The translations under genes and the position numbers were made by a program. Of a DNA stretch of 64,000 nucleotides, positions 4,091-56,067 are shown piece by piece. Each line of letters opens with the position of its first letter. Position 1 is the first letter of the stretch. The stretch is from Hymenobacter sp. (lineage in GTDB: Bacteria; Bacteroidota; Bacteroidia; Cytophagales; Hymenobacteraceae), in the NCBI RefSeq assembly GCF_036387835.1, contig NZ_DASVSY010000065.1, positions 12,322-76,321 of the forward strand, given 5' to 3'. Under the pieces are notes generated by a model. It saw only the letters and a program-made list of their open reading frames with translations, had not been told where the DNA came from and searched no databases.

Positions 4091-4193
4091 GGCCGTGTGA
4101 GCGGAAATCACCACCTTCCTCGATATCCTCTCGAAAAAGAGTAACGCTTTTCAACTGCTGAGTTAAGACGTATGCTCTGGCCGTCAGAGCTGC

Positions 4194-4250
4194 TTTCACG
4201 CAGGGATTCGCAGTGGTTCCTTGAATGACACTGCGAATCCCTGCGTGAAA
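4194..4250 (+). terminator. long perfect hairpin downstream of the DUF2723 gene (putative terminator)
   Basis: 22-bp perfect arms TTTCACGCAGGGATTCGCAGTG / CACTGCGAATCCCTGCGTGAAA with a 13-nt loop, about 100 nt after the stop at 4090. There is no obvious U-tract. Confidence 0.5.
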
Positions 4251-4488
4251 GATTTCACTTAGCGTAAGTCTTCGTTTTGTGCGCCACAGATAAGGAGTAT
4301 CCGCGTAAGACTAAAGGCGTGCTGCAGTCCATCAGAGCGCTAGCGGCTAGAAGTGAAAGGACGTGTCGCCGGGAGAGTACAGGAAACTTTAGAAGTTAAG
4401 AAAACGCTACTTTAAAGTCTGCGTTGACCGTAAAGCTTCCTACTCCCTGCGGGCACGTCCTTTTCCTTTTCTGCAATACACCGTCTCT

Positions 4489-5157: not shown

Positions 5158-5395
5158 CCGGGTGCAAGCCGGTTGAACGGGAAACATGGATGGCACGTTT
5201 GTCGCTCCCCCCACCTGGTGCACGACATAGCAAAGCCGCGGCATCGACCTTGAATTCTGGCCTTAGCAATCAGGAATTGGTTCTCTCTGTCCTTGTTGCG
5301 CATCAGGCAAAAGAAGGGAACGAGGCAAACGCAGAGGAAGACGTTCATCGTGCAACATCTTCTTGTAACTTGGGCGGCCCAATCTTCGCTTGCCT

Positions 5396-5821
5396 ATGAA
5401 AACCAGCCTTCGATTTCGCCACTGGACCGCGCCCCACACCAGAGGGTGTATGTGCTACAACCTGACCGTGGGCGACACCATCGAATATGAAGGACAGCCC
5501 TATCAGGTGACAACTCAGGACTTGAAAGACTACCGCGCCAAGCGCAAGTACCGGCTGATGCTAGCCAGCGGCGTGTTCGATCAGCAAGGCCAGGAATTGT
5601 ACGAGGCCGACATCGTGCAAGTATTTCAGCGGGGCAGCAGCAGCATTTCTTACTTCGCTTACGTGGTGTGGGATGCCGCGCGAGGCTTTCTTTACCGAAA
5701 TGCGCAGGACCTGCCGCTCACAGCAGACTGCTCCACGCTGGTATGGACAAATTTCTATGCCCAACCCCACTGGGTAGACCAGTTCGGCTACCACCGAAAC
5801 TTCATTCGGGAGCACTGGTAG
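5396..5821 (+). CDS. hypothetical protein, YopX-like (phage-derived?)
   Basis: The track ORF 5390-5821 starts at TTG; the first ATG is at 5396. LRFRHW near the N-terminus and DQQGQELYEADIVQV resemble the (K/R)FRAWD and D.NGKEIYEGDIV motifs of YopX-family proteins. Confidence 0.45.
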   Translation: MKTSLRFRHWTAPHTRGCMCYNLTVGDTIEYEGQPYQVTTQDLKDYRAKRKYRLMLASGVFDQQGQELYEADIVQVFQRGSSSISYFAYVVWDAARGFLYRNAQDLPLTADCSTLVWTNFYAQPHWVDQFGYHRNFIREHW

Positions 5822-6219
5822 CGCTTAGCACTAGGGGTTTGTCAGGGCTTCGTATTCCCGAGCAGACAGCCTGCTTCCAACCACTATTCGCTGGTCTGGC
5901 TCATGTGGTTGAAGTTATATTCAACAGCATTTACGCAAGAATTATTTAGATTGCCACAGCATCCGCTAAAACGATTTAGCGAGTCTTATACTTTACTGCT
6001 ATTTCAGTTCATGCCGGATGGAGCGCCTCTTCGCATACGGTTCGCTTTCAGCGCAGTCGGGCCAGCATTCCAACCTAGCTCACTTAGAAACACATAGGCT
6101 GTCTAAAGCGGCCACGAGCTTTATATAAACGCTGGAGCTTGATTTAAACTTGTCTTTCGCTTTATGTTCGGCCACGCCCGGCAGCTTACTCGCTCTTCCT
6201 ACCAAATCCCACCCTTGAA

Positions 6220-8637: not shown

Positions 8638-8833
8638 ACTTTTTTCTTCCCTGAAAACCTATTGAATAAGGTTTCATGCTAAGCGCACCTACCCTGCTAA
8701 GCTGATTTTCAAACGTGAGGCCGAAGCGTTAGCGGTGCTTCGCTCGGCATGATAAACCGGTTTCGATAGAACATTTTTCCAAATAACCTACCTCACTCCC
8801 ATTTTCTCATCCCCCCGAACTACTTGCCCCAAA

Positions 8834-11413
8834 ATGCCGATGCATTCATTGAAAAAGAACTACTTGTGGGTGCTGCTCTGCCTGCTGTTTTACTCCAACG
8901 CCATGGCCGAACAGCCCATTCAACTACCCGGTAAGTGGGAATTCCACAAGGCCGGTGACAGCAAATGGGGCGCGGCCACCGTGCCCGGCACCGTACACAC
9001 TGACCTGTTGGCCACCAAGCAGATCCAAGACCCCTTCTACCGCGTCAACGAGAAAGAGCAGCAGTGGATCGGCAAAACCGATTGGGAATACAGAACCACG
9101 TTTGCCGTTGATGCCAACCAACTCAAAAACGACAAGCTATACCTGGTTTTCGAAGGCCTCGACACCTACGCCGACGTGTACGTGAACGACGTGAAGGTGC
9201 TGGTGGCCGACAACATGTTTCGGCAGTGGAAAAAGGACGTGAAGCCGCAGCTTAAAGCCGGCAACAACGCCTTGCGGGTGTACTTCCACGCGCCCATGGT
9301 GAAGGGCGAAGAGCTGTTCAAGAGCCTACCATTCCAGGTGCCCGCCAGTGACAACGACCAGGCCGGGCCCGGCGAAAACAAAGTGAGCGTGTTCACCCGC
9401 AAGGCCGGCTACCACTACGGCTGGGACTGGGGCCCGCGCCTGGTTACTTCCGGCATCTGGCGCCCCGTGTACCTAGTGCCCATGACCGGAGCACACATTC
9501 AGGACCTGTTCATCAAGCAAAGAAAACTCACCCCCGAGCAGGCCGACCTGGAAGCCCAATTGGAAGTGGAAAGCCTGACGGCCGGTTCCAAGCAGCTGGA
9601 AGTAACCGTGGACGGTTCCAGCACGCCGGTTTATTCGAAGCCGGTGTTCCTCGACAAAGGCGTGAACCACTTGGTATGCAGCTTCGTGCTGCCCAACCCC
9701 GAGCTGTGGTGGCCCAACGGCTATGGCGCCCAAAAGCTTTACACGTTCCGGGCAGTACTGAAAGACGGCTCGAAAACGCTGACTGACAAGCAGGTTCGCC
9801 GCGGTATGCGGACGGTGGAAGTGGTGCAGGAGACGGGCCCGAAAGCCAACTCGTTCTACTTTCTGGTGAACGGCGTGAAGATGTTCATGAAAGGCGCCAA
9901 CTACATTCCGCAGGACAACTTCCTGCCCCGCGTCAACAAGGCCCGCTACGAGCACGTCATCAACACGGCCGTCACCAGCAACATGAACATGCTGCGGGTG
10001 TGGGGCGGCGGCATCTACGAAAACGACCTGTTCTACGACCTCTGCGACGAGAAAGGCATCATGATCTGGCAAGACTTCATGTTTGCCTGCGCCATGGTTC
10101 CCCCACTGGAAAACCACAAGCAGAACATCTACGAGGAAGCCGTAGAAAACGTGAAGCGCCTGCGCAACCACCCGGCCATTGCCATGTGGTGCGGCAACAA
10201 CGAAATAGCGGCCTACATGGGCTCCAACTATTGGGGTACGGCCAAGAACGCCTTCCGCAACCGGCAAGACTCTATGACCATCGTCAACACCTACAAGGAG
10301 GTGTTTCACAGCATCCTGCCGGCCGTGGTAAAAGGCTACGACGACGAGAAGTTCTACTGGTCAACCTCGCCGCAGCCCACTAACTGGTCGCACACCAACC
10401 GCGACATCCGCACCTCCGGCGACGTGCACTACTGGGAAGTATGGGGTGGCAAGAAGCCTATCGAACTCTACCTGAAGAACATCGGGCCGTTCATGAGCGA
10501 GTACGGCTTCCAGTCGTTCCCCGATATGCAAACCATCAAGGGTTTTGCCACGCCGCAGGACTACGACATCAACTCCGAGATTATGAAGTCGCACCAGCGC
10601 TCCTACGTGGGCAACGGCGCTATTCTGCAGTACATGGAGGCTTGGTACAAGGTCCCGAAGGCCTTCCCTAATTTCCTGTACACCGGCCAGGTGCTTCAGG
10701 CCGAAGCCATCAAGCTCGCTATCGAGGCGCACCGCCGGGCCAGGCCCTATTGCATGGGCTCATTGTACTGGCAAATCGACGACTGCTGGCCTGCGGCCTC
10801 GTGGTCGAGCATGGACTACAACGGCTACTGGAAAGCGCAGCAGTACGAGTCGAAGCGCGCTTTCGAGGCCATGCTGGTTTCCCCGATTGTCACCAATGAT
10901 TCCGTGCAGGTGTTTGTGGTATCCGACCAGCTAAAACCCATGGATGCCCAACTGCAAATCCGGTTGCTGGACTTCAGCGGCAAGGTGCTCAACGAAAGCA
11001 AAGTAAGCGTGAACGTGCCAGCCAACACCAGCACCAACGTGCACCGGGTAGCCGTGAAAGATTTGCTGAAAGGCGCCGACCGCAACAGCGTTATGCTGGA
11101 CGTAACCCTACTTGGTCAAAACCAGGAAGTGGCGCAAAACTGCCTGTACTTCGAGTTGCCCAAGAACCTGAAGCTTAACAAGGCTGCCATCAACTACACG
11201 CTCACCAAGGAGAAAGACCAGTACGTGCTCAAACTCAAGAGCACTCAACTGGCCAAAAATCTGCGCGTGTCGGCCGGTGACGATGCCATCATCTTCTCGG
11301 ATAACTACTTCGACCTGATTCCGGGCAAAGAGAAAACTGTGACTTTCCGGTCCGGCAAAGCCCTGAAGAAAAGCGGCATCACCTTTATGAGCATCAACGA
11401 GGCGGCTCTTTAG
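8834..11413 (+). CDS. glycoside hydrolase family 2 beta-mannosidase, secreted
   Basis: 859 aa with a signal peptide (LLFYSNAMA). GYHYGWDWGPRLVTSGIWRPVYL, MLRVWGGGIYE, WQDFMFACA and WCGNNE are characteristic of GH2 beta-mannosidases. Confidence 0.85.
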   Translation: MPMHSLKKNYLWVLLCLLFYSNAMAEQPIQLPGKWEFHKAGDSKWGAATVPGTVHTDLLATKQIQDPFYRVNEKEQQWIGKTDWEYRTTFAVDANQLKNDKLYLVFEGLDTYADVYVNDVKVLVADNMFRQWKKDVKPQLKAGNNALRVYFHAPMVKGEELFKSLPFQVPASDNDQAGPGENKVSVFTRKAGYHYGWDWGPRLVTSGIWRPVYLVPMTGAHIQDLFIKQRKLTPEQADLEAQLEVESLTAGSKQLEVTVDGSSTPVYSKPVFLDKGVNHLVCSFVLPNPELWWPNGYGAQKLYTFRAVLKDGSKTLTDKQVRRGMRTVEVVQETGPKANSFYFLVNGVKMFMKGANYIPQDNFLPRVNKARYEHVINTAVTSNMNMLRVWGGGIYENDLFYDLCDEKGIMIWQDFMFACAMVPPLENHKQNIYEEAVENVKRLRNHPAIAMWCGNNEIAAYMGSNYWGTAKNAFRNRQDSMTIVNTYKEVFHSILPAVVKGYDDEKFYWSTSPQPTNWSHTNRDIRTSGDVHYWEVWGGKKPIELYLKNIGPFMSEYGFQSFPDMQTIKGFATPQDYDINSEIMKSHQRSYVGNGAILQYMEAWYKVPKAFPNFLYTGQVLQAEAIKLAIEAHRRARPYCMGSLYWQIDDCWPAASWSSMDYNGYWKAQQYESKRAFEAMLVSPIVTNDSVQVFVVSDQLKPMDAQLQIRLLDFSGKVLNESKVSVNVPANTSTNVHRVAVKDLLKGADRNSVMLDVTLLGQNQEVAQNCLYFELPKNLKLNKAAINYTLTKEKDQYVLKLKSTQLAKNLRVSAGDDAIIFSDNYFDLIPGKEKTVTFRSGKALKKSGITFMSINEAAL

Positions 11414-11432
11414 TAGCTACTTTAACTGACTT

Positions 11433-11505
11433 ACCGCCTGCGCTAATGCAACAAGAGCCTCGTCGTACGACGAGGCTCTTGTTGCATTAGCGCAGGCGGT
11501 TTTTG
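11433..11505 (+). terminator. rho-independent terminator: 68-nt perfect palindrome plus T5
   Basis: ACCGCCTGCGCTAATGCAACAAGAGCCTCGTCG TA CGACGAGGCTCTTGTTGCATTAGCGCAGGCGGT is followed by TTTTT and begins 20 nt after the GH2 stop. Confidence 0.8.
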
Positions 11506-11698
11506 GTGTAGCTCTAACCTGATTTCATGATTATGGTATTTACATCAGCACTATGCAGCTAAAAAGTAGCAATGTGGATCTGGCCTAGAAGTATTGTGTT
11601 GAAATAAAATTAATAAATATTACTTGATACCTGTATTATACACAGTTATTCATTAATTTTATGCTATATAAATTTCTGCCTCTCTCAACTTCTCACCT

Positions 11699-11926
11699 AT
11701 GCAGTTCTTTAAAAGCTTACTGTTAAGCTTAACCGCTTATTTTATTCCTACTGATCCTATTCCGCCCTATCCTCATGAGTCGTGGAGTGATTTGCCACAC
11801 GAGCATTGGCCCGCCGGGTATGACCCTGAGTCCGATTCGTTTTTAAGGGTTGAGTCCAACCGCTATCCTTATCCCCACCAAGAATCGAGTGTCTCGCAGC
11901 CAACCAACGCGCTGTTGGCATGCTAG
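11699..11926 (+). CDS. hypothetical small secreted protein
   Basis: 75-aa ORF with an ATG start and a hydrophobic N-terminus, preceded by a very AT-rich stretch (11510-11700). The Pro/His/Tyr/Glu-rich sequence matches no family I recognise. Confidence 0.25.
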   Translation: MQFFKSLLLSLTAYFIPTDPIPPYPHESWSDLPHEHWPAGYDPESDSFLRVESNRYPYPHQESSVSQPTNALLAC

Positions 11927-11995
11927 ACCAGAGGGAACCAGCATGTTAACTCCACAATATTAGCTCTTGGACAACAGATTTTGGAAGGTAGTCAA

Positions 11996-13185
11996 CTAGC
12001 CGACTAGCAACTGAGAGGGCTCGTTGTGGATTTTCAGAATCAACTCCTCAAACAGCGTATTAGCCCAGGCAAACCACTTGCCCGAGAACTTAGCTGGGTC
12101 GTCCTGGTCGAAGCTTTCGTGCATGAAACCGGTGCCAGCATGGGTGGTACGCAGCCACGTGAGGCACTGCTGAATTTCGGCGGCATCGGTACTGGTAAGG
12201 GCCCGCAGAATAATACCCATGGGCCAGATAGTGCCAGCCCCGGTGTGCGGCCCTCCGATACCGTTGGCGGCTTTTCCTTGGCAAAACCAGGGGTTGTCGG
12301 CACTCAGGGCGAAGTGGCGGGAGCCTGGTACACCGGGTCTTGCACCGGCACGGCGCCTAGGTAAGGCAGGGACAACAAGCTAGGCACGTTGGCATCGTCC
12401 ATGAACAGCTGATTGCCATAGCCGCCTACTTCGTAGGCGTAGAGGCGGCCGTGGGTGAGGTGCTCGGTTTGGGCGTACTGACGAATGGCGGCTTCTACTT
12501 CCTGCGCCAGGGCGGTGCATTCGGTGGCAAAAGCGGCGTCGAGCTTGAGTGCTGTCCAGAGTGCGGTTAACCGGCGCTGGCTACGGCAAATAGGTTGCTC
12601 GGGGTAAAGTAGGCGTAAACCGTGGCATCGTCGGAGGGCCGGAACATCGAGCAGATCAGGCCACCGGTCGGACGGGGTTGCCGTAGCCGCCGGCCAGAGT
12701 GTCGCTTTGCCACTCGGTGCGGCGCCCGAAGTGGTACGGGCCGCGGCCGGTTTTGCGCCGCTACTCTTTGAAGGTGGCCACCATGAGGCAGGCCGCCTGT
12801 TGCCACTCAGCATCGAAGGGCGTTAGGTCATCGGTGGTTTGCCAGTAGCCGTGGGCCAGGCACAAGCAGTAGCAGAGTGAGTCCACTTCCCACTTGCGCT
12901 CGTGCACGCCGGGCTTCATGTCGGTGCTGTCGTCTTTCCACTCGCTGACTTTACTGGCGTCGGCGTAGAAAGCGTTGGCGTAGGGATCGAGCAATACGCA
13001 GCTGGTTTGGCGGTGAATGACGCCGGCCAGCAGAGTTTGCAACTTTTTATCTTGCCTGGCCAGCGGCAGATAGGTCCACACTTGCGCCGAAGAGTCGCGC
13101 AGCCACTGTGCAAGCACTTACTAGTTGCTGGTAAAATAGGCCCATTGGGGCGAGCAAGCATCTGCCAGCAGCAGCTAGAGCTTAG
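11996..13185 (-). pseudogene. glycoside hydrolase family 125 (exo-alpha-1,6-mannosidase) pseudogene
   Basis: GH125-like blocks are spread over at least four frames. They are AQWLRDSSAQVW and HERKWEVDSLCY (ORF 12761-13117), GLICSMFRPSDDATVYAYFTPSNLFAV (12567-12806), YEVGGYGNQLFMDDANVPSLLSLPYLG (12304-12813) and FMHESFDQDDPAKFSGKWFAWANTLF (11996-12220). Tandem in-frame stops TAG TAA (13118-13123) lie immediately upstream of AQWLRDS. The N-terminal/signal region is missing. Confidence 0.8.
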
Positions 13186-13233
13186 TTCTACCTAATTTAT
13201 TCAATAAACACCGCCCGCTTTAAAGAAATAACA

Positions 13234-15705
13234 GTGAGGCTATTTACCTTATCAGATGCCGGTTTTCCTGCACCAGCGGCGGGCATCCGTTTAGTTAAAT
13301 TTGCCTTGCTTGTCAATCATCAAACTCCATCTCCTGCCCTACGCTCTTCACTTGTGCAACCCACTCCTATTCTACCTTCCTACGTGCAGCGTTTACAAAC
13401 CGCCTCCTCGTGGTGGAGAATTGCCATCCAGTTGGAGCTGCTGTTTTTGCTTTTCCAACTCCTGCTTTCAACAAGCGCTTGCTCGAAGCTAGAGGCCCTG
13501 CTGGCCAAGAGCTTCCAACCTGACCAACCGGCTGTGCTCTCGGGTCCACCCGCGCCCCCGCCGGGCCCCTACCAATGGGCGGGCGTCATTGGGACTACCA
13601 GCGACAATTTCTCGGTGAACCCGTGGCGGGGTCTCTCGTTTGTTCGATCTGTGGCGTATGGCCCGGCGGGCGGCATTGTGGGCGTGGGTTATGGCGAAAC
13701 AGCTGAAAACGTGTGCACTTTCACCGATCAAACCCGGAACGCGCGGGTGGCGCTGGCCAATAACATGCTATCCGTAGTCGACCATGTCGACACCGATGGT
13801 ACCCTGTACTACATCGCCAGCAACAACAACGGCTGGGACAAGAACAACTCGGTGTACGTGGTGGCCCGCCGCTGCTCAGACCGGGAATTGCAGCCTTTCC
13901 CACGAGGAGTACGAGCCAATTTTGCCGGCGACAAGGCCCACGACAATGACGCCGGCTACGATGGGGCCATTAGCCTAACGCAGAAAATTGGGGGCTGGGA
14001 CCCTGCCGTTGTGAGTGCTCAGCACATCAGCGGCATGCGCGTAGAACGAGGAAATAGCCTGCTGGCGGTATGCCGCAAAAACCAAAGCACGGTTCAGTTC
14101 TACCACAAAACCAGTGGTGCCCTGCTCTCGACCCTGCGCCTGCCCGCGCCGGAAAAGTGCGTTTTCTCCCCGTCCGGCGACTTTTGGGTGATAACTGAGC
14201 GTACCGTAAGGCGCTACGTTAACCGCAGTACCCGCGCTACTCCGGCCTTCGAACTACAAACTACTATCACCGGCTTGCAAGAACCAGTAGCTCTCGCCAT
14301 GCGGCCCAATGGTACACTATTGGTGCAAGACGGGGGCAATCATCAGCAGGTGAAAGAATTCCAAGCCAATGGCCAACCTGTGGGCGTGTTCCCGAAAACA
14401 CCTGGCGGCAACAAGCTAAGCCCTGATGTTACGCTGTCGAGCTTTTTATTTGTGAACCGTGAAAGTCTAGGAACCCAGAATCCAGGCGGCAGCGATTATG
14501 ATAAGCCCCTCGGCTCCCTCGATGTTGCTCCCGACGGTTCAATCTGGCTGCTTGATGCCGGCAACTACCGCGTCATGCACTTCAGCCCGACCTGGAAGTA
14601 TCTGGGGCAGTTCGGCTGGCTGCCCTGCCACTACAAAATCGCCGTCGACCCCAACAACATCAAACGCGTGCACTCCGACTACATGGAGCTGGAAGTGGAC
14701 TGGACGCGCCCCATCCGGGGAGGCGACCAAACTCAGCTAGCTCACCCCACCTGGATCCTAAAAAAGAACTGGACCGCGCAGCTTAGCCGCACGCTCAGCC
14801 CGTTCCTGCACGTGGTAACCTATACCAGCAAGGGCGTGAAGCGCACCTTTGCCCAGTGCCACGACTCGGATTTCAACAAACAGGGCTGGCAAACCGAAAT
14901 TGTGGAACTCCCCCCTGCTGGCGTGGCGCGGCGCACCGGCATCCACATCGATTACGGCCCGAATACCGGTCGCAATAAGATCTTGTATCCCGAAGGCATC
15001 CGTTGGTGGGAAATTACCGACGACGGCGCTGGCAACAAGCGGCAATGTGGCTACTTTCAGCCCTTTGCAGGCTTTGACCGCCGCAACAACCCTGTGTTTG
15101 GGCCAGTACAGAAAAAAGTGGATTTCATAGCGCAGCAAGCCAAGCAAAACAACAAACCGCTTAGCTACGGCGGCTGGAACCAGCAGGATGAGTGCCCGGT
15201 AACGGCTGATGGCACCTGGATCAGCTTTCGAGCTCCCCAAATGAAAGTGGGCGCTTTCCAATTGGGCGGCATCAAGCCCGGGCAAACCCGGTGGGCTTGG
15301 CTGGCCTTGCCCAACAAGCTGATGACCAACAGCCAACAAATGGTAACGGGATTCTATCCGGCGGAAGGTTCGGGGTCTGATTTCGGTGGGCACGCCGGGG
15401 TAGCGGTACACGCCGTGGGAAAATACGTGGTGTGTAGCTACGACGGCCAGAACGGCTTTTTCTCCAACCAACATTGGCTGTATCGGCAGGACGGCAAGTA
15501 CCTAGGGCAGTACGGACGCCCCAGCCGCGACCAGCCCGAGTTTACGGCCCTAAATGCCGCTCCTACTGGTTACGCCAACAACACCGGCTACAGCTGCCTG
15601 CTACAATCTGGCCCCACGCTGTTCGAACTCACCACCGACGAAGCTTACTTTGGTGGTATTCACGTTCACCGGCTTGAGGTGCCCGCTCAGAAGTTGAAGC
15701 AGTAG
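13234..15705 (+). CDS. hypothetical protein with NHL-like beta-propeller repeats; start uncertain
   Basis: 823-aa ORF opening at GTG, with no internal Met for ~170 codons. A possible lipoprotein-like segment is LLFLLFQLLLSTSAC. Two NHL-repeat-like segments are PVALAMRPNGTLLVQDGGNHQQVKEF and GSIWLLDAGNYRVMHFSPTWKYLGQFG. I recognise no catalytic family. Confidence 0.6.
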   Translation: MRLFTLSDAGFPAPAAGIRLVKFALLVNHQTPSPALRSSLVQPTPILPSYVQRLQTASSWWRIAIQLELLFLLFQLLLSTSACSKLEALLAKSFQPDQPAVLSGPPAPPPGPYQWAGVIGTTSDNFSVNPWRGLSFVRSVAYGPAGGIVGVGYGETAENVCTFTDQTRNARVALANNMLSVVDHVDTDGTLYYIASNNNGWDKNNSVYVVARRCSDRELQPFPRGVRANFAGDKAHDNDAGYDGAISLTQKIGGWDPAVVSAQHISGMRVERGNSLLAVCRKNQSTVQFYHKTSGALLSTLRLPAPEKCVFSPSGDFWVITERTVRRYVNRSTRATPAFELQTTITGLQEPVALAMRPNGTLLVQDGGNHQQVKEFQANGQPVGVFPKTPGGNKLSPDVTLSSFLFVNRESLGTQNPGGSDYDKPLGSLDVAPDGSIWLLDAGNYRVMHFSPTWKYLGQFGWLPCHYKIAVDPNNIKRVHSDYMELEVDWTRPIRGGDQTQLAHPTWILKKNWTAQLSRTLSPFLHVVTYTSKGVKRTFAQCHDSDFNKQGWQTEIVELPPAGVARRTGIHIDYGPNTGRNKILYPEGIRWWEITDDGAGNKRQCGYFQPFAGFDRRNNPVFGPVQKKVDFIAQQAKQNNKPLSYGGWNQQDECPVTADGTWISFRAPQMKVGAFQLGGIKPGQTRWAWLALPNKLMTNSQQMVTGFYPAEGSGSDFGGHAGVAVHAVGKYVVCSYDGQNGFFSNQHWLYRQDGKYLGQYGRPSRDQPEFTALNAAPTGYANNTGYSCLLQSGPTLFELTTDEAYFGGIHVHRLEVPAQKLKQ

Positions 15706-15838: not shown

Positions 15839-16738
15839 TTACGCTGGACAGTTTAGGGTACTAAGTGGAAGAAGCTGTTGATGAGTGTGATACGGCGTCT
15901 GGTAACCAATACTGGAGTGCAGGCGCTCGTAATTATAGTAATCAAAATAGTCGGCGACGCTGCGTTGAGCGTCGGCTAGGTCGGCAAAAACGGGCCGCTC
16001 GCGGACTTCGAGCACTTCGGTTTTGAGGCGGGACCATAGGCTTTCGGCCTGCGCATTATCATAGCAGTCGCCGCGGCGGCTCTGTGAGCGCACGGCCTGG
16101 TGGTCGCGTAGCAGTTGCCGGTAAGCGTTGCCGCAATACTGCCCACCGCGGTCGGAGTGCACGAGCAGGCCTGGAGTAGGCGGTTGCGCCCAAAAAGCGC
16201 GCTGCAAAGCCGTGGTAATCAGTTCCTCGGGCATCGCAGCGCCCACTTGCCAGCCCAGCACCTGCTTGCTGGCCACGTCCTGAAAAGCGCACAGATAGGC
16301 CCAGCCGCCGTTGGCCAACGGCAGATACGTAATATCGCTGACCCAGACCTGATTGGCCTGCGTCGGCTTGGGCTGGTGGAGCAGCCGGTTGGGCGCGCAG
16401 CGCCGTCCGTGGGTCGAGTCGGTGGTGCGCGGGGTAAAGGCCTTGGGTTGCAGCGCGTGCAGACCTCGGCGACGCATGGCCGCGCGCAGGCGCTGGCGCC
16501 CGACGTGGTAGCCCTTGCGGCGCAAAGCGACCTGCAGCCGGCGCGTGCCGTAGCGGCGCTTATGCCGGCCGAAGACCTTGACCAGCGCCTCTTCCCAAGC
16601 AGGCGCCTTCTCGCTACCAGCTTGCTCTTGAGTTTGTTGCCACGCATAATAACCGCTGGCTGGCACCGCCACCACCTGGCAAAGCAAGCGCACAGGATAC
16701 TGACTCCGCTGCGCTTCGATAAAGCGATAACGGCTCAT
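15839..16738 (-). CDS. IS3-family transposase OrfB (DDE integrase core)
   Basis: 299 aa. WVSDITYL, HSDRGGQYCG and YDNAQAESLWSRLKTE are the D, D and E regions of rve-type transposases. Confidence 0.9.
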   Translation of the reverse strand: MSRYRFIEAQRSQYPVRLLCQVVAVPASGYYAWQQTQEQAGSEKAPAWEEALVKVFGRHKRRYGTRRLQVALRRKGYHVGRQRLRAAMRRRGLHALQPKAFTPRTTDSTHGRRCAPNRLLHQPKPTQANQVWVSDITYLPLANGGWAYLCAFQDVASKQVLGWQVGAAMPEELITTALQRAFWAQPPTPGLLVHSDRGGQYCGNAYRQLLRDHQAVRSQSRRGDCYDNAQAESLWSRLKTEVLEVRERPVFADLADAQRSVADYFDYYNYERLHSSIGYQTPYHTHQQLLPLSTLNCPA

Positions 16739-16765
16739 TGGTTGTCGGTCACGGAGAGCCTGCGC

Positions 16766-17062
16766 TTACAGCAGGCAACTGGCAATGGCTTTTTTTAAAA
16801 TCTCCAGTTCCTGCGCTTGCCGCCGATTGGTGGCCCGCAACTGGCGCAATTCAGCCGCTGTTGCCGGGTCCAACTCCGCTCCACGGGCGGCCGCTACGGG
16901 GGTAAGCGCCTCTTTTTGCCACTTGTAGAGTAGCTTGACATTAATGTTCAACGCCCGGGCGGCAGCTTGGGTCGAGCGGCTTTCACCGGCTAGCCGCAAG
17001 GCCTCGGCCCGAAAGGCGGCGTCATAACGCCGGCGTTTAATAGGTTGAGGGCTGTCTTTCAT
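16766..17062 (-). CDS. IS3-family transposase OrfA (HTH)
   Basis: MKDSPQPIKRRRYDAAFRAEALRLAGESRSTQAAARALNINVKLLYKWQKE plus a leucine-zipper-like tail LRQLRATNRRQAQELEILKKA. The track ORF extends to 17095, but the ATG at 17062 fits typical OrfA starts. Confidence 0.8.
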   Translation of the reverse strand: MKDSPQPIKRRRYDAAFRAEALRLAGESRSTQAAARALNINVKLLYKWQKEALTPVAAARGAELDPATAAELRQLRATNRRQAQELEILKKAIASCLL

Positions 17063-17137
17063 GACGTTCGAAAGATAAGACCCTATTCTGTCCACTTTTA
17101 CCCGACCACCTCACTTCACCCTCCCAAGCCTCTTCCT

Positions 17138-17812
17138 ATGCCGCGTCTTCCCTCCTCTCCGCAGTACTATTTGTCGTTGTTCATCATGGGCTTGGTATTC
17201 CTGTTAGGGTTGGGCTCTTGCGGTATCAGCGAACAGGCGCAACAGGCCAAAGCCTTCAAGGACGCTGATATTCGTCTCGCTTCCATAGAACAGGCCACTG
17301 TGGCGGGCATCAACGTGCTTCGGATCCGCAAAATTAGTGACTTAAGCACGCTAGATCAAGCTCGTCTGGCGGCGGCCTACGCAGCCGGCAATGTGCCGCT
17401 GCGCATGCTTGTAAACCTGGAAATCCGCAACCCCAACGACGAAATGGCCGCCCTCAATGGCCTAGACTATATTGCCCTAATTGATGGCAAGCAGATAGCC
17501 ACGGGGCGGACCACCCAGCGCATTGAAGTTGGCCCCAACGGTGGCGTGGCCTTGGCTCCGGTTACGCTGGAAAGCAACCTGCGAGATGCATTGGCAAACC
17601 AATCGGGCGAGAGCTTGTCCAACTTTGTTATGGGCTTGTCCAACGGCAGTCAGGAAGCCCTGCACTTAACGCTACGCCTTAAGCCAACCTTCGTCACCAG
17701 CGGTGGACGCTCTATTACCCCACCCGGTTACATAAATGTCACCAAAGATTTCACGGCTCGGCAGGTGATCAATGCTGTTGATAAGCAAGACACGCTTAAA
17801 ACCCGCCCCTGA
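17138..17812 (+). CDS. LEA type-2 (LEA14-like) family lipoprotein
   Basis: The ATG at 17138 lies just outside the IS end; the track ORF start at 17045 lies inside the IS. The signal/lipobox is FLLGLGSC. LVNLEIRNPNDEMAALNGLDYIALIDGKQIATG matches the LEA_2 pattern (NPN ... l.y.l..g..ia.G). Confidence 0.6.
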   Translation: MPRLPSSPQYYLSLFIMGLVFLLGLGSCGISEQAQQAKAFKDADIRLASIEQATVAGINVLRIRKISDLSTLDQARLAAAYAAGNVPLRMLVNLEIRNPNDEMAALNGLDYIALIDGKQIATGRTTQRIEVGPNGGVALAPVTLESNLRDALANQSGESLSNFVMGLSNGSQEALHLTLRLKPTFVTSGGRSITPPGYINVTKDFTARQVINAVDKQDTLKTRP

Positions 17813-17894
17813 CTTTTACCTGCGTAAGCGGCTTCTTACCTCACGCGGTAACGAAAACAAACCCATCAACACCTGACGAGGAACGTGTCTTGTC

Positions 17895-19112
17895 TTACCC
17901 TTTTTTCACCACCCACTTTGTTCCCTGGGTGTCTATTTCCACCGCAAAACCCTGGTCGAGATAAACAGTTTGAAAGTGCTCTTCGAAGCTGGGAACCTTC
18001 GTCAGGTTTTTACGCACCATGGTTTGGTAAATGGCAGGCAACTCATCGAGCCGATAGCGAACTTCCGTTGATTCTTGGAGGGTGGGAGCTTGTTTCTTGG
18101 CTGGGGCGCTAGCACGCCGTTGCGCCTCTTTGTATTCGGCGCTTAAATGCTGTTTGGTGATAGCGGCAACAATTGAACCGGCCAAGCTCTTGACTTTGCC
18201 GTCACGCTGCCGCTCCCGTTGCTGCTGCACCACAAATTGCACGTAGCCGGGCTCTACTTCGCCTCGCTCAATTAGTTCGCCTACCGCCGCAATGCTGGCT
18301 GTTGCCACTCCAACTTGCAATAGCGCGTCTTCCCAAGCACTACTAGCAGCCAACAAAGTCTCGCCTTCTCCGGCGGCCAACGAGGTGAACCGAAACTTGA
18401 TTTCCGAAACACCTTTTCCTTCCCGGATTAAGTCATACTCGAAGGGCAGATCGGTTTTAGCTAACTCGAATTGCGCTCGGTCCAACACCCGCAAGCGAAA
18501 CAAAGGAAACTGCTTGTACTGCCCTTCCAAGTTCAACAGTGCTTTCAGTTGTTCGACGGCAACCGTGCGCGTGCCAAAAGCGCTGTATTCCTTAAGCAGC
18601 CAGTAAATCCGATACGAATGGGGACTCTTGAGCTTGAGCAGTTGCACCACCTGCGCCTTCGTGAAGTTGCGCTGCAGCTGCAACAGATAGGGCATCACTT
18701 CGTCATTGAAGCGTACGTGCAGGGCTCCCTCCTCTCCGCGGTACTTGGCGTAAGCCATAAGCGGAATTTTATCGAAGTCAGGGTCGGAATTTCGACGGGT
18801 GGCTCGCCGCACCGGATTAGGCCGCTCGATGTGCAGAATCCTGCTAACTAACTGATTGCACATCCCCGCCACCTGCTGGTAATCCTTGCTACTCGGCCGC
18901 CGTCCCGACAAGGCCACCACCTCCGTCAAAGGAATACGCATCTCCCGAAACTCGCTGTCGTCCCGACCAATGCGTGAGAGCATCGCCATGAATAAGCGCA
19001 TTTCAACCGTAGAAAGGTCGAATCGGGCGTTAACCAGCGCGTTGTGCTGAACCACAATCTTGCTGACGGGTGGTTCGGGCGGCGGCGTAGGATCGAACAA
19101 GTTTGTTTGCAT
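17895..19112 (-). CDS. plasmid replication initiator, Rep_3 (RepB-like) family, copy 1
   Basis: 405 aa with an ATG start. VVQHNALVNARFDLSTVEMRLFMAMLSRI and the winged-helix-like region KLKSPHSYRIYWLLKEY are typical iteron-binding Rep_3 initiator features. The gene lies next to the iteron array. Confidence 0.85.
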   Translation of the reverse strand: MQTNLFDPTPPPEPPVSKIVVQHNALVNARFDLSTVEMRLFMAMLSRIGRDDSEFREMRIPLTEVVALSGRRPSSKDYQQVAGMCNQLVSRILHIERPNPVRRATRRNSDPDFDKIPLMAYAKYRGEEGALHVRFNDEVMPYLLQLQRNFTKAQVVQLLKLKSPHSYRIYWLLKEYSAFGTRTVAVEQLKALLNLEGQYKQFPLFRLRVLDRAQFELAKTDLPFEYDLIREGKGVSEIKFRFTSLAAGEGETLLAASSAWEDALLQVGVATASIAAVGELIERGEVEPGYVQFVVQQQRERQRDGKVKSLAGSIVAAITKQHLSAEYKEAQRRASAPAKKQAPTLQESTEVRYRLDELPAIYQTMVRKNLTKVPSFEEHFQTVYLDQGFAVEIDTQGTKWVVKKG

Positions 19113-19161
19113 GCGTAGTATACCTGATGGCTACTGGCAGTAAGTTGGTTACAACCAGCAA

Positions 19162-19198
19162 CTATTACAAGCCAACTGCCTTGTAATAATTATCCACA
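19162..19198. promoter_or_regulatory. inverted half-iterons plus a consensus DnaA box in the rep copy-1 upstream region
   Basis: CTATTACAAG (19162-19171) and CTTGTAATAA (19180-19189) form an inverted repeat of the iteron core TGTAATAG. TTATCCACA at 19190-19198 is a perfect DnaA-box consensus. This lies 50-86 nt upstream of the rep start at 19112. Confidence 0.6.
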
Positions 19199-19212
19199 CA
19201 ATTAAGGGCTTT

Positions 19213-19372
19213 CGTGCTTTTGTAATAGGTGTTCGTGCTTCTGGTAATAGGGCAACGTGGTTTCTGTAATAGATGGGTCTTAATTCGTCGTGGTTTCTGT
19301 AATAGCAGATTCGTGCTTCTGGTAATAGGGCTGCGTGGTTTTTGTAATAGATGCTCGTGGGTTTTGTAATAG
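19213..19372 (+). repeat. array of 7 direct iterons (consensus CGTG[C/G]TTTYTGTAATAG)
   Basis: Copies are at 19213-19228, 19234-19250, 19256-19272, 19289-19305, 19312-19328, 19334-19350 and 19356-19372. Start-to-start spacings are 21, 22, 33, 23, 22 and 22 bp. Confidence 0.9.
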
Positions 19373-19559
19373 ATGGGCCTCTCAACTCTCTATGATACAA
19401 GGAGTTACAGCACCCGTAAACCTTATAAAGGTTATTAATAAAGGAAACAACTAGTTTAAACAGGTCGTTTCTTTTGAAGAAAGGGTTTTTGAAAAGAAGG
19501 AAATACCACCAAGACGAAGCCAAGTAGCGGGTAAGGGCAAGGGCGGCCCGGCGCGCCGT

Positions 19560-19869
19560 CGTGGTTTTTGTAATAGATGCCATATTACAGCGAGGCATTC
19601 GACCACCTATTCCTAGCCTTTCAAGCTTTAAAAGCGAATGAGGTACTGCGCATGATTCATCGGGTTTCCCACATACACTTCAAAAGCTGATTCCTATTAC
19701 CAAATCCACGACATCCTAGCTTTGGTGTAGCTCCAGCCTTGTGCTTGAAGGGCCATCTATTACAGAAACCACGCAGCAAGGCTTGATCTGAGCTAGTAAG
19801 CAGGCTTTAGCGCCCTCTTAGGGTTTGAATGTCAAGTTGTGTGTATTGGCCTCGTGGTTTTTGTAATAG
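19560..19869. repeat. four dispersed GTGG-type iterons (two forward, two reverse)
   Basis: Forward CGTGGTTTTTGTAATAG is at 19560-19576 and 19853-19869. Reverse copies are CTATTACCAAATCCACG at 19694-19710 and CTATTACAGAAACCACG at 19757-19773. Confidence 0.8.
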
Positions 19870-20038
19870 ATAGAGGCTTTTGTAAGCAATGTATCCAAGC
19901 ACTCAGGAACCACTGCGCTGCTGAATAAATCTCATAAAGCCCACAAAGACAATGGATTAAATGTTAAAGAGATAGAAGTATATTACTCGCCTTACGCTTT
20001 GTGGAGCATTCATTTCTAGATTAACAACACGTCAGGTC

Positions 20039-20279
20039 CTATTACAAAAAGCACGAACGTTTGCTTGCTGCTAGGCTGCACCCTTAAATAACGCTTTCAT
20101 AATGTTCGTGCTTTTTGTAATAGGGCCTGATAAGCGAAGGTCATCCAAATGAATTCGTGCTTTTTGTAATAGCAAGAGCCGGGAACAGGAAGCTTTACAA
20201 TAATAGTAGAGCATTTGTATGCTGATTATTAGTGGCTTACGAAATAAAAAAGGCTTGTTTATTCATTACAAAAAGCACG
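20039..20279. repeat. four GTGC-type iterons including an extended inverted pair
   Basis: A reverse copy is at 20039-20055 and forward copies are at 20107-20123 and 20156-20172. A degenerate reverse copy is at 20264-20279. Copies 20039 and 20107 sit in a ~25-bp inverted repeat (AGGNCCTATTACAAAAAGCACGAAC). Confidence 0.8.
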
Positions 20280-20509
20280 AAACAGCAATCTTTTATCAAG
20301 TAAAATAGCCCTATCCTCTGTTGGAACTATCGGGTTCGTTTGATAAATGCTTGAAAGAAAATTCATCTTGCCATTTTATCTTGAAGCACCATTCCTCAGC
20401 TACACCTTTCACCTAAATCAGAAGGTATTGAGAAAGTATGCAAGTGTCTGTAATACAGATGTATAAGTGAGAATATCCTTCAGAAGCCGCAATGTATTGC
20501 TTTCAAGGC

Positions 20510-20604
20510 CTATTACTAAAAGCACGAATAGCTATTACCAAAAGCACGAATACTTTCAACTGAACAGGCGCTGTAATCTGCTATGCCCTATTACCAAAAG
20601 CACG
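20510..20604 (-). repeat. three GTGC-type iterons directly upstream of rep copy 2
   Basis: CTATTACTAAAAGCACG is at 20510-20526 and CTATTACCAAAAGCACG is at 20532-20548 and 20588-20604. All are followed by AATA(G/C). Confidence 0.85.
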
Positions 20605-20675
20605 AATAGCTATCAGCGGATTATTTTTTATAATACTATTGCCGTACTACTCTCCACCCTTCCCTCCTACTCGTT

Positions 20676-21911
20676 ATGCAAGGAGAACTTTTCGTTAGCG
20701 ATAAGCCAGAGCCCACCAGCAAGCTGGTGGTGCAGCGTAATGATTTGGTTAATGCGCGTTTTGCACTGACAACGCTGGAGATGCGGCTATTTATGGCAAT
20801 GCTTGCACGCATCAATCGGGAGGATACTGAGTTTCACGAATTGCGAATTCCCGTAACGGAAGTAGTGGCGCTGTCGGGACGGCGGCCGAGCAGTAACGAC
20901 TATCAGCAGTTAAAAGACATGTGTGCCTTGCTCGCTTCGCGGGTGTTGTACGTCGAGCGACCGAGCAAGAAGAAAACCAAACGTGCCGGCCAAGCGACCG
21001 AGGAAGCCCCGAGTTTCTCGAACACGCCCTTGATGGCTTACGCCGACTACAGCAGCGAAGAGCGGGCCCTAGTGGTTCGGTTCAACGACCGAGTTCGTGA
21101 GCACTTATTGCAGCTCAACGATGGCAACTTCACGCAGGCCCAGCTTATGCAGTTGCTGAAGCTCAAAAGCGCCCACTCCTACCGTATTTATTGGCTCTTA
21201 AAGCAATACGGCAGCTTCGGTACGCGCACCATCCGCGTAGAGGAACTGAAGCGAGTCTTGGACTTGGAAGGCCAGTACAAGCAATTTCCGCTTTTCAAGC
21301 TGCGGGTATTAGACCGGGCTCAGCAGGAACTCTCCCAGACCAACCTGGCCTTCCAGTACGAGTTGATTCGTGGGAAGAGCAACACCGTGGAAGAAATCCG
21401 ATTTCATTTCACGCCGGTCACCAGCGAAGTTCTTTTACCTTCCCTACCTGCTACCGCCGAGTGGCAGAAAGTCCTGCTTGAAGTGGGAGTATCGGCCAGT
21501 AGTATAGCGGCTATTGGCGACCTTATCGACCGCGGGGAGATGGAGCCTGGCTACGTGCAGTACGTGGTGCAGCAGCAACGCAGCAAGAGCAGCGCGGGCA
21601 AAATCAAGAACCTGGCCGGGGCTGTGTTTACAGCCCTTACCAAGGGCCATCTGGCCGATGAGTATCGTAAGGCCTTGCAGCGCCAAAAGCGCACTCCTCG
21701 CCCCTGTTCAGGCGGTTCAAGCGAAAGTGCTGCCCCACAACTTATTCGTTATCGGTTGGACGAGGCTCGGGAAGCCTATGAGCTAATGGCCCAGCAAAAA
21801 ATGGCCAAAGGGGCCACGTTTCAGGAGAATTTAACTCTGGTCTACTTGTCTCAGGGATTTCGCCAGGAGCAAGATGCCAACGGAGTGGAATGGCTGATTA
21901 AGAGTCTTTAG
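20676..21911 (+). CDS. plasmid replication initiator, Rep_3 (RepB-like) family, copy 2
   Basis: 411 aa with an ATG start. It is collinear with copy 1. In the block VVQRNDLVNARFALTTLEMRLFMAMLARI...VERP, 57 of 79 hand-aligned residues are identical to copy 1. Confidence 0.85.
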   Translation: MQGELFVSDKPEPTSKLVVQRNDLVNARFALTTLEMRLFMAMLARINREDTEFHELRIPVTEVVALSGRRPSSNDYQQLKDMCALLASRVLYVERPSKKKTKRAGQATEEAPSFSNTPLMAYADYSSEERALVVRFNDRVREHLLQLNDGNFTQAQLMQLLKLKSAHSYRIYWLLKQYGSFGTRTIRVEELKRVLDLEGQYKQFPLFKLRVLDRAQQELSQTNLAFQYELIRGKSNTVEEIRFHFTPVTSEVLLPSLPATAEWQKVLLEVGVSASSIAAIGDLIDRGEMEPGYVQYVVQQQRSKSSAGKIKNLAGAVFTALTKGHLADEYRKALQRQKRTPRPCSGGSSESAAPQLIRYRLDEAREAYELMAQQKMAKGATFQENLTLVYLSQGFRQEQDANGVEWLIKSL

Positions 21912-22084
21912 AGTGTTGCCTTTTCAAGCTGTCAGAAGCGCTACGCAGGCAGCTTGAATCTAAAAGCGTATTCTCACCGTCTTGGATCAGGCATTGATGG
22001 CTTCTCGCAAGCAATTTCGTTGGAAGCAGCAGCTTGAAATCGATGCCCTATCGGAATCCTTCAGGCTTCACACCTTTAATTGAA

Positions 22085-22500
22085 AACACGAACGTTTATA
22101 CGTATAAACGTTAGTATATACTAACGTACATACATTTATATGTAAACGCATAAGTTTGTGCTCTTTATTCTTTCTAACGTTTATACGTAAATACATAATA
22201 ACGTATAAACATAAGTACATATATACGTAATTACGTTATTATGCTCTTACACTTATATGCAACTACGTAAACTTGTCTAAGTGCGTAATACTGTGTTGCA
22301 TTGAATATATGTAAATAGCAAAACGAGTTCGATTTAGTCTTTTATCCAATATGCTACGATTAGCTCAGGTTGAAAGAAGATACAGTTAGAGGACTATTAG
22401 TATGTACGTAAAAACGTATTTACGTATCAACGTAGGTATATAAATATGCTCGATCGTTTTAACGTTTGTGTGTAAATATTCTTTACTTGCGTTTGCACAT
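22085..22500. promoter_or_regulatory. AT-rich cluster of ACGT-centred palindromes upstream of parA (candidate centromere/operator or DNA-unwinding region)
   Basis: A perfect 22-nt palindrome AACGTTTATACGTATAAACGTT is at 22091-22112 and TTAGTATATACTAA is adjacent. AACGTTTATACGT recurs at 22176-22188 and AACGTATAAAC is at 22199. ACGTAATTACGT is at 22225-22236 and TACGTAAAAACGTATTTACGTA is near 22404. Confidence 0.5.
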
Positions 22501-22516
22501 CATTGTTTACTGATTT

Positions 22517-23305
22517 ATGCAAACTCTCTGCTTTTCAAATAATAAGGGAGGGGTAGGGAAAACTACCTCTGCTCTCAACGTTGGCCTAGCGCTGGCCCGC
22601 CGCGGCTATCGGGTGCTGTTCTGTGATTGTGATCCGCAGCGTAGTCTTACTATCTCGTTCGAGGGGGCCGACATACCAGAACACGTTGGCATGCTCCTTA
22701 TGCGCAAAGGCGAGTTCACTCTCGATGACGTACACGCGGTGGTTAGGCCAGTGGGTGAGAATGTAGATCTGCTGCCGGCTAGTGCAGAAATGGAAGCCAA
22801 TGAGGCGCAGCTTCCAGGTTGGGATGCCGAGCATTCCACTCGCTTGGCCGACATCCTGGAAATGATAGCTCCGGAGTACGACTACTGCTTAATTGATACT
22901 AAAGGCAGTATCGGAACCTTAACTTGGATTGCGTTGGCAGCTACTAATCTGCTTTATATCCCTGTCGATCCGGAGTTCTATGGGTTCGAGGGCTTGACTA
23001 ACCTGATCAATACGTGCACCCGTTTGCGGCGGCGCATCAATCCAACTCTGCAGATAGGCGGTATCTTTTTCACCAAGTATTCCCCGGCTTACCGGGCCCG
23101 CCTCCGTCATGATGTGGTTGATTTGATCAAAGACCATTATGGTAAAGAGGTACCGGTCTTTGAAACTACTATCCGCCAAAGCACCGCTATTCCCAACGCT
23201 CAAATGGCGGGCACCGGCCTTTTCGACTACGCGCCGGATTCCACGGGTGCCGAAGACTACGAAGCTTTAACCGACGAAATCTTACAACACCTCCATGCCA
23301 AGTAA
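22517..23305 (+). CDS. parA: ParA/Soj-family partition ATPase
   Basis: 262 aa. It has a deviant Walker A SNNKGGVGKTTSALNVGLALA followed by CDCDPQRSLT. Confidence 0.9.
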   Translation: MQTLCFSNNKGGVGKTTSALNVGLALARRGYRVLFCDCDPQRSLTISFEGADIPEHVGMLLMRKGEFTLDDVHAVVRPVGENVDLLPASAEMEANEAQLPGWDAEHSTRLADILEMIAPEYDYCLIDTKGSIGTLTWIALAATNLLYIPVDPEFYGFEGLTNLINTCTRLRRRINPTLQIGGIFFTKYSPAYRARLRHDVVDLIKDHYGKEVPVFETTIRQSTAIPNAQMAGTGLFDYAPDSTGAEDYEALTDEILQHLHAK

Positions 23306-23774
23306 CTCCGCCAAAATCCCGTCGCGGCCTGCGCTGGACCGCTACAAAGATAAACCCCGGCCCACCCTGTCGGAGAATCCGGCTGGCACGCCGCCTCCGG
23401 TACCCGTTACCGAGGCCCTCCGCGATACGCCGCCGGCCCGCTCGGTAGTGGCTGAAGAAAGCACTCCACCCGTCCGCCCGCAGCAAGTCTCGGGTAGGGT
23501 AGGGAAGGAGCCAGCGGCAACTCCGGTAGCAAGCAATTCCGTTCCGTCGTCGGTGCCGGAGCAGGTACCATTCAACTCGCAAATAAAATTCGAGACCTAT
23601 CTGCGCATCAAGCAGGCTCAATTTTATGATCGGGTCAAAATCAAAGACTTAACCGACGAGGCACTCAACTATTATCTCGATCAATTCGAGGGGGCCAACA
23701 CGCCGTTGCCACCCAAGGTGTTGCAAGAAGTGCTCAATCAAGGAAAAATCAAGGGGTACAAGAAGCGAGGTTGA
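23295..23774 (+). CDS. putative partition adaptor / centromere-binding protein (ParG/ParB-analogue)
   Basis: 159 aa whose start overlaps the parA 3' end by 11 nt. It has a long Pro-rich, probably disordered N-terminal part and a short structured C-terminus (VPFNSQIKFETYLRIKQAQFYDRVKIKDLTDEALNYYLDQFEG) compatible with a ribbon-helix-helix fold. The call rests on position only. Confidence 0.45.
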   Translation: MPSNSAKIPSRPALDRYKDKPRPTLSENPAGTPPPVPVTEALRDTPPARSVVAEESTPPVRPQQVSGRVGKEPAATPVASNSVPSSVPEQVPFNSQIKFETYLRIKQAQFYDRVKIKDLTDEALNYYLDQFEGANTPLPPKVLQEVLNQGKIKGYKKRG

Positions 23775-56037: not shown

Positions 56038-56067
56038 TAGTTGGCGCATCTTCTGCCAGTACACGCT

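Follow-up and report, generated by a model that had tools for sequence, protein, structure and literature searches.

The stretch of DNA analyzed here, further called the window, comprises 64,000 nucleotides of a contig from Hymenobacter sp. (NZ_DASVSY010000065.1) and contains two genes for replication initiators of the Rep_3 family that point away from each other. Judged by its sequence, the locus serves the replication and partition of what is probably a large Hymenobacter plasmid, and two Rep_3 iteron replicons are fused head to head in it. The first gene, rep1, lies on the minus strand (17895..19112) and encodes a protein of 405 amino acids (aa); rep2 lies on the plus strand (20676..21911) and encodes a protein of 411 aa. 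Both open reading frames (ORFs) had been proposed as full-length Rep_3 genes in an earlier, sequence-only reading of the window, and they are confirmed here at the same positions. When compared with the Pfam profiles, both proteins score above the gathering cut-offs, i.e., 112 bits (E 3e-32) for Rep1 and 103 bits (E 2e-29) for Rep2 with Rep3_N (cut-off 22.4), and 39 bits (E 9e-10) and 42.5 bits (E 8e-11), respectively, with Rep3_C (cut-off 21.1). The two divergent genes are separated by a gap of 1,563 bp (19113-20675), which has a GC content of 43-44% vs. 54-64% in the flanks.

The winged-helix cores of both Reps (WH1 and WH2, approximately aa 13-247 in Rep1) align with RepE of F and with π of R6K over residues 13-247. 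Along their entire length, Rep1 and Rep2 share 55% identity; in an N-terminal block for which 57 identities in 79 positions had been reported, 56 were counted. Both Reps, and all their relatives, continue for approximately 160 aa past WH1-WH2. This C-terminal extension (17895-18371, i.e., aa 250-405, in Rep1 and 21429-21911 in Rep2) is conserved and carries the motif GK(I/V)KSLAG, while sequence searches in Pfam, NCBIfam and the PDB returned no relatives for it. An AlphaFold2 model of Rep1, for which the alignment consisted of the two window sequences only, reached a pLDDT of 61, which is too weak for a fold search. In this model, in which confidence is low, the extension seems to consist of a helical subdomain and, after it, a small α/β one. 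Among the relatives that carry the same locus, the closest is the complete circular plasmid unnamed1 of H. volaticus 5420 S-77 (330 kb). Between the window and this plasmid, dN/dS is 0.038 for rep1, and for rep2 dN is 0.056 with dS being saturated. By these rates, both genes are under strong purifying selection.

To place the locus among its relatives, related loci were collected from the complete plasmids of PLSDB, from one genome per species and from metagenome contigs; all informative loci are from Hymenobacter. The head-to-head pair is present in four of about 55 informative loci, being the window, H. volaticus plasmid unnamed1 (L001), a Hymenobacter metagenome-assembled genome (L009) and Hymenobacter sp. 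YC55 (L010). These four fused loci have the gene order LEA_2-rep1-rep2-parA-small gene in common. A scan of metagenomes for further independent fused loci yielded 23 more loci, all of them with a single rep gene. Single-rep relatives, for which a search among related plasmids had been suggested, exist for each half of the locus. The Reps form two clades. The fused Rep1 proteins are nested within the single-rep Rep1 clade, with Rep1 of the window being 88-91% identical to Rep1 of the other fused loci and 61-72% to the single-rep members, and the fused Rep2 proteins are nested within the single-rep Rep2 clade (91-92 and 72-86% identity, respectively, for Rep2 of the window). Moreover, the two fused sub-trees are congruent, with the same branching order. 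Nesting and congruence together indicate that two distinct replicons were fused once and have diverged jointly since then. They argue against a local mirror duplication and against the earlier term "paralogous" in that sense, as each Rep is closer to genes on other plasmids than to its neighbor. Since synonymous sites are saturated while both genes are intact and the iterons are kept, the fusion must be old and both genes must have been maintained by selection. Of the suggested cointegrate scar, the cointegrate origin stands; the scar does not, as the arrangement is old, occurs in four assemblies and has both genes under selection. H. tibetensis KACC 21982 harbors both clades as separate plasmids, unnamed1 being of the Rep2 clade and unnamed2 of the Rep1 clade. 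Their presence in one strain suggests that Rep1- and Rep2-clade plasmids are compatible and shows a route to the cointegrate.

Iterons were searched with the pattern CGTGSTTNNNKTAATA, allowing at most one mismatch. In the 64-kb window, this gives 17 matches, all inside 19234-20604, where shuffles predict 0.24 matches and none of 100 shuffles reached 17. A 15-nt variant at 19213 raises the total to 18, matching the earlier estimate of at least 18 iterons in the gap. Two types are distinguished, type A (CGTGGTTTTTGTAATAGAT, CGTGG-type) and type B (TTCGTGCTTTTTGTAATAGG, CGTGC-type), that show an absolute difference at the fifth core base and weaker differences in the flanks. In what follows, A16 and B16 are the 16-nt sites of type A and type B, and b15 is a C-type site of 15 nt, one base less. 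Among the single-rep loci, the 25 of the Rep1 clade together contain 221 A16, 51 b15 and no B16 sites, and the 20 of the Rep2 clade contain 163 B16 sites and none of type A. Across these 45 loci, iteron type matches Rep clade without exception. In the window, neighboring proximal sites are mostly 21-23 bp apart, with seven sites on the rep1 side and three on the rep2 side. Compared to H. volaticus, all 18 iterons are kept in place while the spacers are scrambled. An ORF of 149 aa within the iteron field (19149-19598, minus strand) is very likely spurious, as much of it reads through iterons and as the annotation of H. volaticus does not include it.

In both clades, the origin follows the same plan. 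Toward rep, four distal iterons in the orientations -,+,+,- are followed by a GC-rich clamp, an A/T-rich core of approximately 190 nt, tandem iterons at a spacing of 22 bp and an inverted pair of half-iterons. The gap in the window consists of two such plans back to back. What had been described as one shared iteron field is, therefore, better seen as two discrete modules, each with its own iteron subtype and each corresponding to a complete single-rep origin of its own clade, with a poorly conserved junction in between. The reported polarity, with both rep-proximal tandem arrays reading CTATTAC..CACG along their own gene, was found again. The description of the locus as a large imperfect palindrome holds only for the way in which the iterons are ordered and oriented; for the remaining sequence, a global alignment of the two halves gives 66% identity, vs. 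62% after shuffling.

Module 1 lies on the rep1 side (19113 to about 19870). Just upstream of rep1, an operator-like inverted pair of half-iterons, CTATTACAAG...CTTGTAATAA, is located at 19162..19189. Both arms are invariant in 14 aligned Rep1-clade loci and are kept compared to H. volaticus; by analogy with RepE and with RepA of pPS10, this is the predicted site of autorepression by Rep dimers. It is followed by a perfect DnaA box, TTATCCACA, on the plus strand at 19190-19198, 86 nt upstream of rep1, in agreement with the DnaA box noted earlier. All four fused loci have the box at this position; in single-rep relatives it is sporadic (L014, L017), and module 2 contains none. The proximal array (19209..19375, plus strand) consists of seven tandem iterons spaced at 21-23 bp, with one gap of 33 bp. 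Starting at the end farthest from rep1, the sites are A A B16 A A B16 b15. The positions in this array are conserved one by one compared to H. volaticus, with divergent spacers. Next comes an A/T-rich region (19373..19556), the candidate DNA-unwinding element, with a core of 70-80% AT at approximately 19405-19477 that contains TATAAGGTT-type repeats. Nucleotide profiles of the A/T-rich core were built for each clade from single-rep loci only. The Rep1-clade profile scores 72 bits in module 1 of the window and 39-45 bits in the other fused loci. After the core, a GC-rich clamp is present at about 19536-19556. The four distal iterons (19560..19868) are of type A, starting at 19560 (+), 19695 (-), 19758 (-) and 19853 (+), which gives -,+,+,- along the direction of rep1. 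This four-site pattern with its distances recurs in nearly all single-rep loci of both clades that reach far enough upstream; a few have three sites or differ. As far as sequence elements go, module 1 thus has everything found in single-rep Rep1-clade origins, i.e., four distal iterons, GC clamp, A/T-rich core, tandem array and half-iteron inverted repeat, plus the DnaA box.

The junction between the modules, about 170 bp without iterons (19872..20035), is the stretch that is least conserved compared to H. volaticus, which has three extra segments of 82, 43 and 15 nt. Module 2, on the rep2 side (about 20040-20675), starts with four distal iterons of type B (20040..20279), at 20040 (-), 20107 (+), 20156 (+) and 20264 (-), in the same -,+,+,- layout as in single-rep Rep2-clade loci. 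The spacer that follows (20282..20508) is AT-rich (63%), is not conserved compared to H. volaticus and is without the conserved core and the GC clamp of the clade. With the core profile of the Rep2 clade, 13 out of 13 single-rep loci reach 85-124 bits, and at the module 2 position no match is found in any of the fused loci (window, L001, L009, L010), where the profile only gives weak cross-matches to the module 1 core. According to a duplex-stability scan of the spacers, module 2 is slightly more stable than the single-rep origins of the Rep2 clade and falls within the range of the Rep1 clade. Three proximal iterons of type B remain (20511..20604, minus strand, at 20511, 20533 and 20589), against four to five in single-rep relatives, so one has been lost. 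Finally, the rep2 leader (20606..20675, plus strand) contains a half-iteron inverted repeat of which the left arm is degenerate, CTATCAGCG vs. CTATTACAG in single-rep loci; the degenerate arm is seen in the fused loci that were aligned (window, L001, L009). By comparison with its clade, module 2 has kept rep2, its type B iterons and the partition genes, and is stripped of the conserved elements other than iterons.

A further characteristic of the fused loci is the presence of partner-type iterons within the arrays. Inside the module 1 array, 16-nt Rep2-type iterons are located at 19234 and 19312. Across the four fused loci, such sites occupy these two fixed positions in 8 out of 8 cases; the 25 single-rep Rep1-clade relatives have none, and the matching positions there only have the 15-nt form. 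Counted over all C-type sites, the 16-nt form makes up 0/51 in single-rep loci vs. 8/12 in fused loci. By matrix score, the embedded sites fall between the 8th and the 44th percentile of 165 genuine type B sites, and they are B-like, not A-like. Reciprocally, a Rep1-type iteron is present in the module 2 array of three of the four fused loci and has decayed in the window. The earlier idea of a jointly regulated origin gains some indirect backing from these partner-type sites in both arrays. The interleaving of C-type sites as such did not arise with the fusion, as single-rep loci such as L005 and L011 show the order A A b A A b A. Only the switch from 15 to 16 nt is specific to the fusion lineage.

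Other arrangements with two Reps, or with two iteron sets, were encountered among the relatives. In a sister sub-lineage (L020 at 6400-8881; L017, L018, L023, L046, L050, L055, L058), two type A iterons, convergent in orientation, lie behind a Rep1-clade gene whose C-terminus is altered. In L020, L023 and L050, a second, distant Rep3_N gene lies in tandem downstream (285 aa and about 32% identical in L020), and in L017, L018, L046, L055 and L058 the downstream type A iterons alone were seen. This additional gene may be under the control of the first Rep. The tandem layout is a hint that pairs of initiators may have come about more than once among Hymenobacter plasmids. A 107-kb contig of H. 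humi JCM 19635 (L024, L036) contains an intact Rep2-clade replicon and, approximately 60 kb away, a second full set of type B iterons. The latter adjoins a rep gene that aligns only in fragments, and the set may be the remnant of a decaying second replicon.

The window is considered a probable part of a plasmid because a complete relative exists, a parA gene is adjacent to rep2, the 20 large ORFs of the window that were scanned have accessory-type content, and scans of the window for tRNA, rRNA and other Rfam families gave no matches. Downstream of rep2, parA (22517-23305, plus strand; Pfam matches of the AAA_31/CbiA/ParA type) is followed by a small gene without family match (23295-23774, plus strand). 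Together they form a single partition cassette (22517..23774) that is linked to rep2. The order rep2-parA-small gene is kept in the fused loci and in single-rep plasmids of the Rep2 clade, with ParA being 92-96% identical. Throughout its whole length, the H. volaticus plasmid is annotated with a single ParA and with no replication initiator besides rep1 and rep2. Between rep2 and parA (22088..22470), repeats with an ACGT core and a period of 8 bp (TACGTAAA, AACGTTTA and similar) are dense at 22088-22270 and 22397-22470. By their position upstream of parA, these arrays are probably the partition site of the ParA system. Iterons doubling as partition site were ruled out, since the repeats upstream of parA are unrelated to them. 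A scan of 17700-22600 for σ70 promoters and terminators yielded counts at chance level; this consensus does not apply to Bacteroidota.

On the other side, beyond the LEA_2 gene that flanks rep1, a two-ORF element of the IS3 type is present (15839-17095, minus strand; HTH_Tnp_1, then HTH_21 and rve). In the H. volaticus plasmid, the matching position is occupied by a cupin gene, and the element looks like a recent insertion. An ORF of 823 aa (13234-15705, plus strand) has no Pfam match at E ≤ 1e-5. Further away, a metal-efflux cluster of the RND type and the PAP2, DUF4833 and CDP-alcohol transferase genes are found at 53002-61943 in the window and at 4054-14207 in the H. volaticus plasmid, at a different distance from the rep locus. 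By gene content, the two plasmids have a common cargo that is rearranged.

How do the two modules work together? With somewhat more belief than doubt, we hold that a single ancient head-to-head fusion of two related, compatible replicons has left module 1 as the main origin, while Rep2 has been retained for a role in cis. Complete circular single-rep plasmids carry a module of this kind as their only Rep_3 replicon, and the comparison of sequence elements suggests that module 1 can work alone and that module 2 is doubtful in this respect. The absence of the module 2 core is given weight because the Reps of RK2 and F, which are winged-helix proteins as well, bind specific repeats of the unwinding element, and altering these repeats abolishes origin activity (PMC4081077). 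The steps of binding, firing and repression are inferred by analogy. Rep1 monomers would attach to the iterons of type A and melt the core of module 1, possibly assisted by host DnaA at the box at 19190, so that module 1 would be the main or the only origin that fires. Rep2 would be kept since it still acts in cis, through iterons inside and beside module 1, either as a co-initiator or as a governor of copy number that pairs iteron sets, in which case it would resemble incA of P1 and incC of F. As a dimer, each Rep would repress its own promoter at the half-iteron repeats, a control that is probably weakened for rep2. A more specific version, which we regard as possible but less likely than not, is that Rep2 was recruited to module 1 through the interleaved Rep2-type iterons after its own core had been lost. 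If so, firing or copy control of one origin would depend on two separately encoded, related initiators, and the remaining Rep2 iteron field would be a cis control locus.

Several observations weigh against this reading of the fused locus. With 63-66% AT, the module 2 spacer has stayed AT-rich and overlaps in melting energy with Rep1-clade origins that presumably work, so it could still open. Strong selection on rep2 would equally be expected of a fully working second replicon. Rep1-clade arrays natively carry 15-nt C-type sites, and the 16-nt sites could be Rep1 sites with one additional base. Furthermore, the four fused loci make up one lineage, which reduces each derived feature to a single event, though one kept over saturated synonymous divergence. 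Lastly, GC skew was computed for the window and for the whole H. volaticus plasmid and does not settle the position of the origin; that of the plasmid has structure (block-shuffle p of about 0.016) and the rep locus lies within a broad trough, but the minimum is about 30 kb away from it. Some of these points would fit a classical bireplicon, i.e., two independent and fully functional replicons of which each Rep fires its own origin only. The benefit would be a replicon in reserve when incompatible plasmids enter the cell, or a broader range of hosts, and the differences in module 2 and the embedded sites would be neutral or minor. Such a view accounts for two intact rep genes under strong purifying selection, for the conservation of all iterons of both modules and for a module 2 that is still AT-rich. 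It also agrees with the coexistence of both clades as separate plasmids in one strain, by which they are probably compatible and tell the iteron types apart, and with the fact that multi-replicon plasmids are common (PMC7315799; 10.1101/2024.09.03.610885). Nevertheless, an A/T-rich core that is present in 13/13 single-rep Rep2-clade origins is undetectable in 4/4 fused module 2 regions, in a setting where RK2 and F require specific unwinding-element repeats (PMC4081077). In addition, the GC clamp and one operator arm have gone from module 2, and Rep2-type sites are fixed in the module 1 array only in the fused loci. We therefore incline against the bireplicon, while taking it seriously.

Loss of the module 2 core with retention of its iterons could also mean that Rep2 and its iterons have no part in initiating replication of this plasmid. 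They would then mainly serve to exclude plasmids of the Rep2 clade that enter the cell, which would be displaced through titration and the pairing of iterons, or to co-regulate the adjacent parAB. The conservation of rep2-parA-small gene as a unit in Rep2-clade plasmids fits such a device, as does the finding that no single-rep plasmid of the Rep1 or Rep2 clade was present among the H. volaticus plasmids (Rep2 search) or at the genome-scan locus of YC55. It leaves the fixed Rep2-type iterons in the module 1 array unexplained, however, and the candidate partition repeats are unrelated to iterons, which makes this explanation unlikely. The mirror-image order and orientation of the iterons and the 55% identity of the Reps would at first sight point to a true palindrome, formed by a local inverted duplication of one replicon that diverged later. 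This is refuted by the trees, in which each Rep is nested in a separate clade and is far closer to Reps of single-rep plasmids (67-71% identity for Rep1, 82-86% for Rep2) than to its neighbor. Moreover, the iteron subtype and the A/T-rich core of each module match its own clade, and the halves are without DNA similarity beyond the iterons; a duplication is thus very improbable. Hardly any credence is left for a recent cointegrate scar, or an assembly artifact, in which one rep is being lost. Such an event might be expected with an IS3-type element at 0.8 kb from rep1 and in Hymenobacter strains that hold many related plasmids, but four independent assemblies have the same layout and the same flanking genes, synonymous sites are saturated, and both genes are intact with only four to five conservative lineage-specific changes each.

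The mutual influence of co-resident iteron replicons has been little studied outside IncF, and the locus provides a comparison made by nature. With dozens of single-rep plasmids for each parent type and one old fused lineage, it can be read directly what followed the fusion, as one origin lost its core and iterons of the partner's type were gained. If the cross-talk is real, it would amount to a plasmid origin governed by two related initiators and would provide a handle on the single iteron base that sets initiator specificity and compatibility. In the literature, no paper was found on iterons in Hymenobacter, nor on two initiators at one plasmid origin. The modules described above are a first map of replication origins of Hymenobacter megaplasmids, for which no published analysis was found. 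Abutting origins between divergent reps, reciprocal embedding of partner iterons and selective loss of one origin core were not found described either.

Taken separately, each module is by its sequence an ordinary member of the Rep_3 iteron family. As in the single iteron replicons (RepE of mini-F, π of R6K, RepA of pPS10, and pSC101), a WH1-WH2 initiator is combined with tandem iterons at a spacing of approximately 22 bp, A/T-rich sequence beside them (in module 2 without the conserved core of its clade), an inverted repeat of half-iterons before rep (in module 2 with one degenerate arm) and, in module 1, a DnaA box. The layouts of pPS10 and pSC101 have a comparable, classical iteron-origin anatomy. 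The Hymenobacter replicons differ by the C-terminal region of approximately 160 aa and by the distal cluster of four iterons (-,+,+,-), 400-750 bp upstream. In P1, incA is an extra cluster of iterons that controls copy number through titration of Rep and pairing with the origin iterons. A non-firing module 2 would act likewise, and like incC of F (PMC11983097), in that its seven type B iterons would titrate Rep and pair with iterons of the origin. The control iterons of P1 and F, however, bind the single initiator of the origin, whereas here a second, separately encoded initiator is involved.

The earlier statement that iteron plasmids carry one initiator and one origin is a rule of thumb only, as bi- and tri-replicon Rep_3 plasmids and the multi-replicon F plasmids are documented (PMC7315799, PMC9927589, PMC11983097). 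In one survey, 14.7% of the plasmids linked to winged-helix initiators were multi-replicon (10.1101/2024.09.03.610885). The classic multi-replicon plasmid is F, with the iteron replicons FIA and FIB next to FII, of which FIB is partly defective (PMC11983097). Like the locus in the window, IncF plasmids have more than one replicon, each with its own initiator and iterons, and control by iteron pairing; one replicon can be partly defective and yet be retained and remain responsive to Rep in trans (PMC11983097). In F, however, the replicons lie apart, whereas here the origins abut within 1.56 kb between divergent reps, partner-type iterons are present in each array, and the host belongs to the Bacteroidota instead of the Enterobacteriaceae. 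Acinetobacter plasmids such as pD36-4, p2ABSDF and p3ABSDF carry two or three Rep_3 genes of different groups (PMC7315799, PMC9927589), and one Rep of pD36-4, without nearby iterons, is regarded as having fallen out of use (PMC7315799, PMC9927589). In contrast, each Rep of the Hymenobacter locus retains its full set of iterons and is strongly selected, and it is the A/T-rich core of one origin that is missing. Its Reps are also close to each other (55% identity) and are accompanied by near-identical iterons that differ mainly at one base.

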